From NCBI RefSeq assembly GCF_000026545.1, contig NC_011601.1: 64,000 nt of DNA; one strand, 5' to 3'. Position numbers: made by a program. Shown here piece by piece: positions 6,001 to 45,000 of this stretch (position 1 is its first letter; every line of letters begins with the position of its first letter). Source of the DNA: Escherichia coli O127:H6 str. E2348/69. Lineage in GTDB: Bacteria > Pseudomonadota > Gammaproteobacteria > Enterobacterales > Enterobacteriaceae.

Positions 6001-9000
6001 GGAATGACGATAGAGGATAGGGATAGTTATATCAGGGATCTTTTTTTTCTGCATTCATTGAAAGTAAAAATTGAGGAAAGTAGACAAGGCAAAGAAGATT
6101 CGAAATGTAAAGTTTATAATCTGCTATGTCCGCATCACTCTTCAGAGCTATATGGTGATCTACGAGCAATGAAATGCCTCGTGGAAGGATGCAGTGATGA
6201 TTTTAATCCTTTTGATATTATTAGGGTACCAGATCTTACTTACAACAAAGGATCTTTACAATGTGGATGATTAGAGGCCTGTGAGCCTGTTTAGGATTCT
6301 GTGTAAATGCCTTTTCTTAAAAGTGACCGTCAAGACGGTCACCAAACTCGATAATAAAGCGGCTCATTGCCATTCGCCAGTCCCTTAACGGCATTGTCCA
6401 TTTCTGTGACGCGGCCTGGATTGCCAGCCACACCACTTTTTTTACTGACTCGTCCGTCGGGAACACCTTGCGTTTCCTGATGGCATGCCGGATCACACTG
6501 TTCAGCGACTCGACGGCGTTCGTTGTGTAGATCACTTTGCGGATATCTGCCGGATAAGCGAAAAACGTCGCCAAGTTAGTCCAGTTTGACAGCTAGCACC
6601 GGCTTATCTGCGGATAGCGGCAGTCCCAGGCCGCAGCAAACGCTTCCAGTGCCTGCTGGCCTGCCTCTTCTGTGGGAGGCTAATCGCTTTCAGGTCGTGA
6701 GTGACGGCTTTGTATTCCTTCCATGACACGAAGCGCATGCTGTTGCGCACCATATGCACGATGCATAACTGGATGCGGGCCTCCGGGAATTCTTTCAGGC
6801 CATCCACACAGGCGATGAGGATATCGTTCAGACCGCGGTTTTTCAGTTCAGTCAGCACATTGAACCAGAAATTCGCCCCTTCATTTTCGGCCAGCCGCAT
6901 CCCCAGGAGCTCTTTCTGACCTGCGATATTGATGCCCAGTGCTAGGAACATTTTTATGACAAAAAATTAGTGCAAGAAGACAAAGAATCGCCTTGCGCTA
7001 ATGCTCTGAAACAGGTCACTAATATCATCTAAATAGTTGACTCATAGTGACAGCATGTGTTGTGTCTTGCAGTATTATATAGTCTATTATTTAGATTGAA
7101 GCCATCATAATCTATTGATGTTAATGGTTTTTATTGTTTGTTGTTCGGCTTTTTATACTAATTTGAGCGAAACAAAAAGATAAAAAGTTGTTTTTCGTGT
7201 CTTTAAGTGATACCAGATGGTATTGCGCTAAATGTACCAATGGGTATACCAAGAGCACTAAAAACAAAGGGGCAACCACTTTGTAACCCCTTGATTATTT
7301 GCAGAAGCGCAGAAAATCGAACTCTGGAACCCTTTCGGGGCATCCTTTTTCAAGAATGAAGAAAAAAATAACTAAAAAATCAAGTTGTTAGGAAGTTATT
7401 CATGGCTAGTGTACCAACTCTTTTCTGGGCTAATAGCTATGATTTGTTTGTATTATTTGTCTCTGTCTCTATTATTTTTGACATCCATGCGACTTCTGAT
7501 ATTGATAATCTCAGTTGTGGAGTTCTGTCTGCGCTTCCGGGAGGACGCATATCAAAACTACTGGATCTTCTGTTAAACACTGTAAAGCCATCTACATTGC
7601 ATGTTGTTGAGTCTAAGATACAATTTTTAGTGTTACGATAATGCTAGGGCGGAAAGTTTCTTCCACTCACTAAAAGTCGAATGCATTTACGGCTAATATT
7701 TTATGAGTCGGGAAATAATGCAGACGGCTGTGTTTAATTAGATCTAGTGTGATTACAATCGGTGGTGCCGACACAGTACTTGTGGCTGTCTCAGCACGGA
7801 ACTGTTTTGAAAAACAGAACCTTGATTAGGGCTGTGTCCACATTACGTAGGTAGGATCACCCCACAGGCACCACATGTCATGCATGGATTAGGATTGAAT
7901 GATAAATCGTAAAGAAAACTGCAACACCTCGCGTGTAGCACCTGGTTAGCGAACTTTCGAAAGTACGAGTATTGTATGATTTCCAGCAGTTATCAATTTT
8001 ACGTATTAATCAGTGAATCAACAACTCGTCAGCAGACTCTCTTTGTTGTGGAATTTTTTGGAACGTGTATAGGGTAGAAATTTTTGTTTTGGGACATGGT
8101 TGGGACGCCGTAGTACATACGAACTCTGCCGAATAACGTATGATATTATTTTTTAATCTCTTGGAATACATTATAGAAACAGAATGCTCTTGGGCGATTT
8201 TTAGTGATTGTTTAAATAGCCCTGTCATGCAGTTAAAGTGGCGGGCATCCTCTTCAAGGATGGTGATCCTCAACCGCACCCATTTAGGATGCGACTATTG
8301 TGGTAGAACAATGTAAACCATAGTTAATCTGCGTGCGGATACATGCTTCATAGATAGGATATTCTGGTTTGGGTTGTGAATGTGTTGGTCATCGAGTGGA
8401 CAATAAGGTAAGAGGAGTAACTCCTGCAAAACAAAAAAAGAGTTCAACAAAATCAATCAGTTAAAAACACGAGAGATCTGTATAAAAAAGCATCGTAAAT
8501 TCTGTATTTTTCCTTTAAATATAATATGTTATTGAGTTTTGTAAAATCTACCGGTCTGGTACATGGATATCGATACCGAAGTGAAATATAAATCCAACGG
8601 CGCAGTGCTGCCTGCAGGGCGTTATTCTGACAACGTACGCCTTGACCCGTGGGTATTTATGTTCTCTGCGGGTTACCGCTTCTAATTTTTTACCATCAAT
8701 AAATATCCTCCGGCATAGCCGGAGGTTTTTCAAATGCGCCTATAAGGCTCTCTTACCAGCCGCGCCCTAACAGGCGCACACGATCTGACATTTGCATCCA
8801 ACTTCGTTACTTACGGCCCGTAAACGGGCTGCCCGGATAGGGAATCGATAACTGCTCTCCCATTTTATCCTCTTCAAGCTGGTGCTTTATGTAATCCTGT
8901 ATCTTCGCCGTGTTCTTACCCACCGTATCGACGTAATACCCTCTGCACCAGAACTCCCTGTTCCTGTACTTGAATTTCAAATCACCAAACTGCTCGTAAA

Positions 9001-42000: not shown

Positions 42001-45000
42001 TGTCTTCGGTATTTTGGCGCAAATACTATGTGATATTTACAGTTCCATCGGGTGTGCGCTAAGCTCTTTTCGTTCCCCATTGGGACCCCCTTTTGATTTC
42101 TTGTTTGACACTTGCAGTTGCCAGACCGCAAGGTGTTTTAACAAATCAAAAGGGGTTTTAATAACTGGCTCAAAGCTGAAAGCTTTCCGGAACCCCCAGC
42201 CTAGCTGGGGGTTTTCTGTGCACAATAAACGGCCCATCCATGAGGAATGGGCCGTGAAAGGAGATTACGCGACTGGGCGCGCAATAATGCTGCGGGTTTC
42301 CATGCGGACTTCGGCAATGGTGACGTCAATAACGTCAGTCACTTTGTAAGCCGTTTCACCTTTAATTTGTACAGTGCCGTTTTCCTGGCTGCAAACCAGT
42401 TCATCGCGCACAGCGTGTAAGAAAGGTGCTGGAATAAAGGCGATAGCGCCGTTATCAACCAAACGAACACGCATGCCGCCACGGCTGATATCGACAATTT
42501 CCGCCGCGAAACGGGTGTCGGTCCCGGCTTTGTCTTTCAGGAAGCGTGCGTATAACCAGTCGCCAACATCACGTTCTGCTATCCGGTTGAGACGGCGACG
42601 CTCGGCCATTTGGACAGTGATTTCATCCTGTGGACGCGTCGCAGTTTCGCCTTTGATAACCGCTTTCAGCAGACGGTGGTTGATCATGTCGCCATATTTA
42701 CGGATCGGCGAAGTCCAGGTGGCGTATGCTTCCAGACCGAGGCCAAAGTGAGGACCGGGTTCAGTGCTAATTTCAGCAAATGACTGGAAGCGACGAATGC
42801 GGCTGTCGAGGAAACCAGTTGGTTGCGCATCCAGTTCACGACGCAGTTTGCAGAAACCGTCCAGCGTGAGCACTTCTTCAGCATCGACATGCAGACCGTG
42901 CGTTTTCAGCAACGCTGCCAGCGCGTCGGCATTCGCCGGATCAAAGCCCATATGCACGTTATAGATGCCAAAACCGAGCTTATCGCGCAGTACGCGGGCC
43001 GCACAAATGTTAGCGGCAATCATCGCTTCTTCGACGATACGGTTGGCAATGCGACGAGGCTCGGCGACGATATCCAGCACTTCACCTTTTTCACCGAGAA
43101 TAAAGCGGTAATCCGGGCGATCTTTAAACACCAGTGCGTGGTTATGACGCCACTCGCCGCGGCGTTGGCAAATTTGTGCTAGCAAACGGACTTGTTCGGC
43201 AATTGCTTCGCTTTCAGGCTGCCAGTCACCGGTATTTTCCAGCCAGTCAGAAACCTGGTCATACACCAGCTTCGCTTTGGATTCGATGGTGGCGGCAAAG
43301 AATTCGATATTATCTTCAATGGTGCCATCAGTGGAGAGCGTCATGCGGCATGCCAGTACCGGGCGGACTTCATTGGCGCGCAGTGAGCAGAGATCGTCAG
43401 AAAGCTCGCGAGGCAGCATAGGGATGTTGAAGCCAGGCAGATAGTTGGTGAATGCGCGAATTTTCGCGGCTTTGTCCAGCTTGCTGCCTTCAGCAATCCA
43501 CGCGGTTGGATCGGCAATCGCCACAATCAGCTGAAGTTTGCCATCCGGTAACGCCTTGGCGAAAAGGGCGTCATCCATATCTTCTGTGCTGGCACTGTCG
43601 ATGGTGACAAAATCCAGCGCAGTCAGATCTTCACGAACCAGACCTTCATCGAGCATTTCGGTAGCGACGCCGTCTGGTGCTTCTTTTTCCAGATTATGAC
43701 GCGCAAGGGTAACCCACCACGGTACAAAGTGATCGTCACCAAAAGTGATGTATTGTGTCAGTTCAGCATAGAAAGAACGATCGCCTTTCAGCGGATGACG
43801 GCGCATTTCGGCAACCGCCCAGTCGCCTTCTTTAAACTCGTGGTTCAGGCCACGGGCTGCGCGGCAAGGAATGGCGTCTTTTAAGAGTGGATGATCAGGA
43901 ACGATGGCCAGACGGTCATTTTTGCCCTGAACTTTACCCACGAAACGAGTCAGGAACGGTTCAACCAGTTCTTCTGGCTCTGCGGATTCACGTTCTTTTT
44001 CACTGTGGATCACCGCGATAATTCGGTCGCCATGCATGACTTTTTTCATCTGCGGCGGCGGAATGAAATAACTTTTTTGCGCGTCGACTTCCAGGAAGCC
44101 AAAGCCTTTTTCTGTGGCTTTTACCACCCCTTCAGCGCGTGGCGTCTGGGAATGCAGTTGCTGTTTAAGCTGCGCTAGCAGCGGGTTGTCCTGAAACATA
44201 ATTGTCTATTTTGGTGGCCATTAGAGCGGCTGACAGTTTTACGCGAATCTGTCTGACGCGGCAAGGTTAATATGTCTCACCCACGCGATTTTTAAGCGAT
44301 TTATCCAGCCACACAGCCCGCTCCATACCAGCAGATTAATAATCTGCGTTGATGATTTTTCGTGTTCGAGTAATGGGCTGAACTGGGCGGCGCTAAAGCG
44401 ATCGGGTGCTCGGGTCAGCCATTGTATCGCCTGAACGGTAGCGCGCTCAACAGAATGACGGTCAGCCCATCGGTTAATTTCATTTTCGCCCTTGCGCAGA
44501 AAGGGACTGATTTTTTTATATTCATTTGATGAATTCATACAGGCGGCAAAACAAGCAGGACTGCCATTTATCCGCGCGCATAACAACGCCGCAAGCTGAT
44601 TATCCGGCTGTGTATTGACCCGTGTGCTGTTTAACAACTTTTCGAGAAGGGAAAGTGAAATAGGGTGGAGAGAGTGTGTGTTGGCCAGTTGGCAAAGTTC
44701 TGCAGTTGAACTTTTTGTGTGCTCTTCAGGGAGTTTTTCCACCTCATAGCTGCTTCGCCAGCGTAATGATTCATCAGCAAACAGTGACGCGTCGGCGTAG
44801 TTTTGTATCTCCAGCCCGGGTAACCAGCGTACTGGATGCCCGAGATAAGCCTGAAATGTCGCAATTGTCCGCGCCTGAAAGCCAATAAAACCAATGATTT
44901 GGTTAATGATCACACAGTCACAGACAGTAAGACCAACGTCATTCAGATGCTGGCGCGATCGGTTGTCGATAATAGAAGGCGAGCTAGCCAGTTGGCGGGC

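Follow-up and report, generated by a model that had tools for sequence, protein, structure and literature searches.

Insertion sequences (IS) of the IS200 group, described as IS200 in Salmonella enterica, IS200C in Escherichia coli and IS1541 in Yersinia, are about 710 bp long and encode a 152-residue Y1 HUH transposase, TnpA; they lack terminal inverted repeats, carry subterminal hairpins of which the one at the left end doubles as a terminator, have a structured 5′ untranslated region (UTR) matching STnc490, and insert without target duplication. In Salmonella IS200 the bidirectional terminator occupies nt 12–34, transcription starts near nt 40, and transposition is very low (PMC4513863). 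Two elements sharing the properties of the group, both IS200C, are present in the 64,000-nt stretch of E. coli O127:H6 str. E2348/69 (contig NC_011601.1) analyzed here, referred to as the window, where they flank the chromosomal segment from trp to pdeR in direct orientation. Relative to Salmonella IS200 they differ in length (711 bp versus 707 bp) and in that one of them, copy 1, contains a nested element, ISEc13, but there is otherwise nothing substantive to separate them. It is highly probable that they are an ordinary pair, arising by two independent IS200C insertions into the terminator tails of minus-strand genes, with ISEc13 inserting later. The arrangement likewise resembles that of IS608 and ISDra2, which insert 3′ of a short sequence at the left end, have a related sequence at the tip of the right end, and have hairpins set back about 9–10 nt from the ends. 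In contrast to IS608 and ISDra2, IS200C lacks tnpB, its target is a T-rich heptamer behind a terminator hairpin rather than TTAC or TTGAT, and the copies in the window are placed on the apparent template for the leading strand.

The window is identical to positions 1431214–1495213 (plus strand) of NZ_LT827011.1 (Escherichia coli O127:H6 EPEC E2348/69 “variety 2”; EPEC, enteropathogenic E. coli), and across both IS200 sites it is 100% identical to CP059840.2 (E2348/69) and LT903847.1 (EPEC1, an engineered derivative). A repeat search of the window identified a 100% identical direct repeat at 8698 and 41513, with a start-to-start distance of 32,815 bp, and RefSeq labels the tnpA gene in each as “IS200/IS605-like element IS200C family transposase”; the original prediction of two identical, directly oriented minus-strand IS200-like copies around trp–pdeR is thereby confirmed. 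Base-by-base extension gave an uninterrupted exact match of 694 nt (8698–9391 and 41513–42206), hence a chance origin of the repeat is of no concern, and the possibility that exact alignment might reveal substantially different copies did not materialize. The proposed 700 bp or so of direct homology on either side therefore holds as 694 perfectly matched nucleotides, although it had been overlooked that copy 1 is broken by ISEc13. Copy 2 (41513–42223, minus strand) is intact at 711 bp, with tnpA at 41622–42080. Copy 1 retains its right end, tnpA (8807–9265, minus strand; WP_000526113.1) and most of its left end at 8698–9391 (minus strand), the final 17 nt of the left end, GTGCACAGAAAACCCCC on the tnpA strand, being detached at 10951–10967 (minus strand).

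The two tnpA genes encode identical 152-residue products, in which residues 11–129 match the Pfam domain PF01797 (Y1_Tnp; E=1.7e-37, 128.7 bits) and an HIH motif is present within ...CADHIHMLVE...; tnpA is the sole open reading frame (ORF), as is characteristic of the IS200 group of the IS200/IS605 family. Terminal inverted repeats are absent, and each end carries a subterminal hairpin: AACCCCCAGC-TAG-GCTGGGGGTT at the left (−18.7 kcal/mol, 10 nt in from the end) and CCTCCGGC-TAT-GCCGGAGG at the right (−15.9 kcal/mol, 9 nt in from the end), located in copy 2 at about 42191–42213 and at 41522–41540, respectively, on the minus strand. The left-end terminator and structured 5′ UTR (art200/STnc490) region typical of the group was recognized by the Rfam model RF01405 (STnc490; gathering score 56), which spans the left end and tnpA 5′ UTR of copy 2 (42090–42213, minus strand) with 146 bits and the equivalent region of copy 1 (9275–9398, minus strand) with 117 bits, the lower score reflecting the interruption of the match by ISEc13. 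Both matches are to the tnpA-sense strand. The STnc490/art200 RNA is antisense to the tnpA 5′ UTR (Ellis et al., 2015; PMC4513863), and it is apparently the complementary strand of this region that the Rfam model describes.

Comparison with unoccupied sites enabled the insertion junctions to be defined. The empty rnb–pdeR site of O55:H7 CB9615 reads ...GGGGA-AATAAAC-GGCCC..., and in the filled site these flanks are 718 nt apart; the empty ompW–trpA site, present in M1/5 and MCJCHV-1, reads ...ACCATC-AATAAAC-CGCCAG.... The 718 nt shared by the two filled sites consist of a 711-bp insertion plus a pre-existing 7-nt target (GTTTATT on the tnpA strand), and the occurrence of a single heptamer in both empty sites implies that 711 bp were inserted each time and no target was duplicated, the insertion lying 3′ of a short specific sequence at the left end as in other IS200-group elements. 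In the tnpA sense, both sites have the order terminator hairpin, GTTTATT, and IS left end (GTGCACAG...), with the IS right end terminating in ...GGATATTTATT. The target of copy 1 (10968–10997, minus strand) comprises the trpA terminator hairpin (about 10971–10997) and the heptamer at 10968–10974; that of copy 2 (42224–42255, minus strand) comprises the rnb terminator hairpin (42229–42255) and the heptamer at 42224–42230.

The same organization was observed at 10 additional IS200C loci from other E. coli genomes, representing eight distinct sites located downstream of a phage tail gene, an epimerase gene, rspR, dgcZ, an ORF6N gene, wzzB, yiaA, and gltX. The insertion is 711 bp at all 10 loci, at each of which an annotated gene on the tnpA strand ends just upstream of the left end, and at 12 of 12 junctions (including the two in the window) the left end lies directly 3′ of a GC-rich hairpin and a T-rich heptamer, which at the additional loci is GTTTTTT, GTTGATT, AGTTTTT, TTTTTTT, or TTTTATT. 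A recent preprint similarly reports that the over-representation of terminator-like sequences is strongest immediately upstream of IS200/IS605 elements (10.1101/2025.07.22.666184). IS200C would act as a single-strand “peel and paste” transposon employing its Y1 HUH transposase, and would insert just 3′ of a hairpin and T-rich heptamer on the strand that carries the terminator in the sense orientation; each copy in the window would thus have landed in the T-rich tail of an intrinsic terminator, that of rnb for copy 2 and that of trpA for copy 1. Since the insertion strand would be the terminator-sense strand, IS200C is expected to be co-oriented with the preceding gene, and hence the two window copies have a common orientation, each having landed behind a minus-strand gene. 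By analogy with IS608 and ISDra2, the heptamer is probably part of the target and not of the IS, and the A-rich bases located 5′ of both IS hairpins may guide cleavage at TTTATT.

The distribution of the two insertions among 5,426 complete E. coli genomes, which were used for all population counts, supports a sequential origin. IS200C-like sequences occur in 3,095 of these genomes, and at 8–9 places in E2348/69 itself. The rnb–pdeR site occupied by copy 2 is filled in 31 genomes; in the seven of these loci that were aligned, junction position and orientation are identical, divergence of the flanks reaches about 3%, and the element in strain S1bESBLb is a variant with only 95.6% identity. The diverged flanks and the divergent variant imply at least two independent insertions and identify the rnb–pdeR site as a recurrent target. 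The presence of identical copies at different sites, and of different IS variants at the same site, lends only indirect support to the putative single-strand peel-and-paste activity of IS200C. In contrast, the only records with copy 1 and its ISEc13 are the three derived from E2348/69, and an IS200 at ompW–trpA was not found in any other of the 5,426 genomes. The closest relative seen, M1/5, has copy 2 and an empty copy 1 site, which places the events in the order copy 2, copy 1, ISEc13: copy 2, common to related B2 strains such as M1/5, would have been acquired before copy 1, which is restricted to E2348/69, and the left-end hairpin of copy 1 would then have received ISEc13.

ISEc13 (9392–10941, plus strand; 1,550 bp, transposase at 9557–10930) lies within the left-end hairpin of copy 1, flanked by a 9-bp target duplication, AGCCTAGCT, at 9383–9391 and 10942–10950. 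The sequence on its 3′ side, 10951–10974, consists of the last 17 nt of IS200 and the 7-nt target. Its transposase matches PF14706 and PF01609, together with PF02281 at 24.1 bits, slightly below the cut-off of 26.7, and its 19-bp ends (CTGTCTCTTATACACA and CTGTCTCTTGATCAGATCT) are near-identical to the outside and inside ends of IS50. The Tn5-type DNA-binding, DDE, and dimerization domains, the IS50-like ends, and the 9-bp duplication assign it to the IS50 group of the IS4 family; unlike IS50, with which it shares these features, it is a separate 1,550-bp IS with many copies in E2348/69, where queries containing ISEc13 matched about 34–36 places. Neither half of copy 1 re-forms the left-end hairpin split by ISEc13, so that copy 1 would have lost the left-end structure needed by TnpA; after the insertion, copy 1 can probably no longer excise as a unit and lacks its built-in terminator. 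A second ISEc13 (54315–55864, minus strand) is 100% identical to the nested one and inverted with respect to it; its flanking repeat, ATCCTGAG, is limited to 8 bp in place of a clean 9 bp. These two inverted copies, 43 kb apart, are a potential substrate for inversion of the region from trp to the RND efflux island. We considered whether such an inversion has occurred and rejected it, as gene order across the shared stretch is that of O55:H7. Gene order over the whole window is also what we take to be the K-12 order.

Some considerations weigh against two ordinary terminator-tail insertions as the explanation of this locus. The supporting evidence is all comparative, transposition and recombination not having been observed; the exact left and right IS boundaries are ambiguous within the repeated TTTATT; and the assignment of the heptamer to the target is by analogy and non-experimental. 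Consensus assemblies are moreover blind to low-frequency, unstable duplications arising in culture. A further difficulty concerns the replication strand. An exact Ter core, GTATGTTGTAACTAA, is present between lapB and pyrF (36326–36340, minus strand), within the IS200-bracketed interval, at the position of TerA. By the Tus-Ter orientation rule, it is oriented to block forks moving towards lower coordinates. The GC skew of the plus strand is positive (+0.036), which together with the TerA orientation indicates that the normal clockwise fork travels towards higher coordinates and consequently that the tnpA-sense (“top”) strand of both copies lies on the presumed leading-strand template. This placement is opposite to the lagging-strand preference of the family, as described for IS608 and ISDra2 (PMC5027513). 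Copy 2 sits 5.2 kb to the terminus side of TerA, within reach of counter-clockwise forks, which could reconcile the strand of copy 2 but not that of copy 1. One extension of the terminator-targeting model is that IS200C homes to intrinsic terminators and that the rnb terminator is a true hotspot because forks are slowed at Tus-TerA. The hairpin and T-tract would then be recognized as single-stranded DNA, the A-rich guide bases would pair with TTTATT-type cleavage sites, and the slowed forks would expose the minus strand as the template of the lagging strand at the rnb terminator; if true, this would also account for copy 2 lying on the “wrong” strand, but we regard it as unlikely. The lagging-strand rule was also tried at other IS200C sites with K-12 gene orientations, and about five of six backbone sites conform to it; the numbers are small, and this was not used as evidence.

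The original prediction treated the repeats as a substrate for tandem amplification or deletion of the intervening segment, and we asked how far a more dynamic interpretation of the pair is warranted. The substrate itself is real, in that 694 nt of 100% identity in direct order flank the segment, and tandem duplication by homologous recombination between the copies is plausible: RecA-dependent unequal sister-chromatid exchange could generate a 32.8-kb tandem duplication, reversibly and at low frequency. IS200-mediated tandem duplications are reportedly known from Salmonella Typhimurium (Haack and Roth 1995, Genetics 141:1245), where directly ordered IS200 copies likewise act as portable, RecA-dependent homology; in the window, in contrast, duplication is only a possibility, and neither a joint nor a change in copy number was found. 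The reciprocal deletion would be lethal. The unique DNA between the copies (10975–41512) extends from trpA to pdeR and contains TerA and the genes trpABCDE-L, rnm, yciO, yciQ, rluB, cobO, yciK, sohB, yciN, topA, cysB, acnA, ribA, pgpB, lapAB, pyrF, yciH, osmB, yciT, yciZ, and pdeR. Three of these, topA, ribA, and lapB, are essential in E. coli K-12 (Keio collection), so the deletion should be lethal and non-recoverable; trp, cysB, and pyrF would be lost with them. Synthetic joints were searched for in the genome set, requiring at least 80% of the query to be covered for a joint to count as present. The duplication joint (pdeR flank, IS200, and ISEc13) reached this level in 0 of 5,426 genomes, the maximum coverage of 77% corresponding to the two parental junctions, and the deletion joint (ompW flank, IS200, and rnb flank) likewise in 0 of 5,426. 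The spacing of the two sites is the same in CP059840.2, LT827011.1, and LT903847.1, all collinear with the window, from which it follows that the interval is single-copy and undeleted in these assemblies. We rejected LT903847.1 as a natural rearrangement: it differs upstream of 7741, but the record is described as “EPEC1, artificial construct”. With neither a novel joint nor altered spacing, no trp–pdeR rearrangement is fixed in any available genome; the homology component of the original prediction stands, and deletion is unrealistic. It has been noted that IS-flanked amplification is a common adaptive route (PMC11253626 and PMC13423834), and with the perfect homology and the Salmonella precedent this would favor the pair being an active amplification unit, such that the copy number of trp–pdeR is already raised or variable in E2348/69 populations, with phenotypic effects through the dosage of, for example, topA, cysB, acnA, or pdeR. 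Given the identical single-copy spacing in three E2348/69-derived assemblies (one engineered from variety 2), the missing duplication joint, and the lack of any selective pressure known for the interval, we consider this very unlikely; the amplification idea is generic and is unsupported by any genome. There is next to no likelihood that the two copies delimit a composite transposon or an excisable 33.5-kb unit, with TnpA using the left end of copy 2 and the right end of copy 1. On the minus strand an intact left end (42223) is indeed followed by an intact right end (8698), as TnpA requires, yet the family moves via single-stranded circles (PMC5027513), for which a 33.5-kb single strand bearing essential genes is implausible, and IS200 transposition is mostly dormant (PMC4513863). 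None of the genomes searched contains the ompW–IS200–rnb junction expected after excision, a 45-nt query for the pdeR start matches one place in each of three E2348/69 records, and excision would be lethal; the essential gene content of the interval effectively refutes the composite-transposon interpretation.

The proximity of copy 2 to pdeR (39334–41319, minus strand) raises the alternative, also advanced in the original prediction, that the insertion alters expression of this gene. Copy 2 could in principle rewire pdeR by disrupting its promoter, by supplying an outward promoter, or through the IS200 5′ UTR or antisense RNAs acting in cis, and selection for the insertion would explain its recurrence in 31 genomes. 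Consistent with this are the location of the insertion inside the rnb–pdeR intergenic region and its recurrence in diverged lineages, at least two events being required by the 95.6%-identical variant; IS200-derived RNAs can regulate genes in trans in Salmonella (PMC5435999). However, 193 bp separate copy 2 from the start of pdeR (41319) downstream and 34 bp from the stop of rnb upstream, and comparison with the empty site of CB9615 shows that all 193 bp of native intergenic sequence on the pdeR side have been retained. Terminator-like hairpins are present at both ends of copy 2 on the tnpA strand, that at the right end facing pdeR; a consensus scan of 41200–42400 found no sigma-70-like promoter; and IS200 is weakly transcribed and terminator-insulated (PMC4513863). 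The target specificity for terminators accounts for the recurrence. A literature search yielded nothing usable on a published pdeR transcription start. With the upstream 193 bp intact, hairpins at both ends, no promoter match, and the insertion tolerated in 31 genomes, little effect on pdeR is expected; copy 2 is predicted to be close to neutral for pdeR transcription, and rewiring of pdeR appears quite unlikely. The two terminator-tail insertions, followed by that of ISEc13, thus remain our preferred explanation.

A change that the original prediction did not register is likelier than the IS insertion to influence pdeR. The start codon of pdeR in E2348/69 is ATT (41319–41317), whereas it is ATG in seven of seven comparison genomes (O55:H7, M1/5, and five others). 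A 45-nt query centered on the ATT variant matched only three E2348/69-derived records among the 5,426 genomes, a search in which ATG alleles could not be matched because Megablast requires a 28-nt exact word. The ATT start probably lowers translation of PdeR, and may affect cyclic di-GMP and curli control in E2348/69. Translation could alternatively start at an in-frame TTG (41292) with AGGGAG in front of it. Between pdeR and IS200C there is also a 34-codon ORF for a hypothetical protein (41373–41477, plus strand). This ORF is conserved in several genomes, but M1/5 and O158:H23 have a frameshift in it and O55:H7 a truncation.

Other features of the window lie outside these relationships. Positions 1–8685 comprise a prophage remnant with the type III effector genes nleA, nleH1-2, and nleF, an espO pseudogene, IS256 and IS3 fragments, a degraded integrase gene, and a 3′ fragment of ompW (8545–8685). 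EPEC1 (LT903847.1), the artificial construct from E2348/69 variety 2, has no match upstream of 7741 and is without these effector genes there. In O55:H7, yciE, yciF, and yciG are located between ompW and trpA, where E2348/69 (window positions 8686–11005) and many other genomes, among them M1/5 and MCJCHV-1, do not have them; the ompW 3′ end is 82% and the region downstream of trpA 94% identical to O55:H7. We rejected the idea that copy 1 caused a yciE-yciF-yciG deletion at this position, as ompW adjoins trpA, free of any IS, in many genomes and the copy 1 site is a clean 711-bp insertion relative to the empty sites of M1/5 and MCJCHV-1. A strong Rfam match to the small RNA STnc180 (200 bits; 30079–30281, plus strand) overlaps ymiC upstream of acnA. 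The E2348/69 annotation gives yciW (44267–45393) as a frameshifted pseudogene; in O55:H7 CB9615 the gene is intact. Between fabI and sapF (46700–54300) are genes for a TetR regulator, an RND efflux pump (adaptor, permease, and outer-membrane subunit), and an MFS transporter, a cluster that is presumably not in K-12 and whose permease gene carries a frameshift in O55:H7 CB9615.

E2348/69 is the prototype EPEC strain, and the arrangement described here consists of ordinary, already annotated IS200C insertions in its reference genome, with low significance beyond housekeeping. As perfect direct repeats bracket trp–pdeR, rare duplications of the segment are possible, and read-depth anomalies there would have an obvious cause. 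The consistent targeting of terminator tails by IS200C illustrates why its insertions are usually harmless and why they are co-oriented with the upstream gene.

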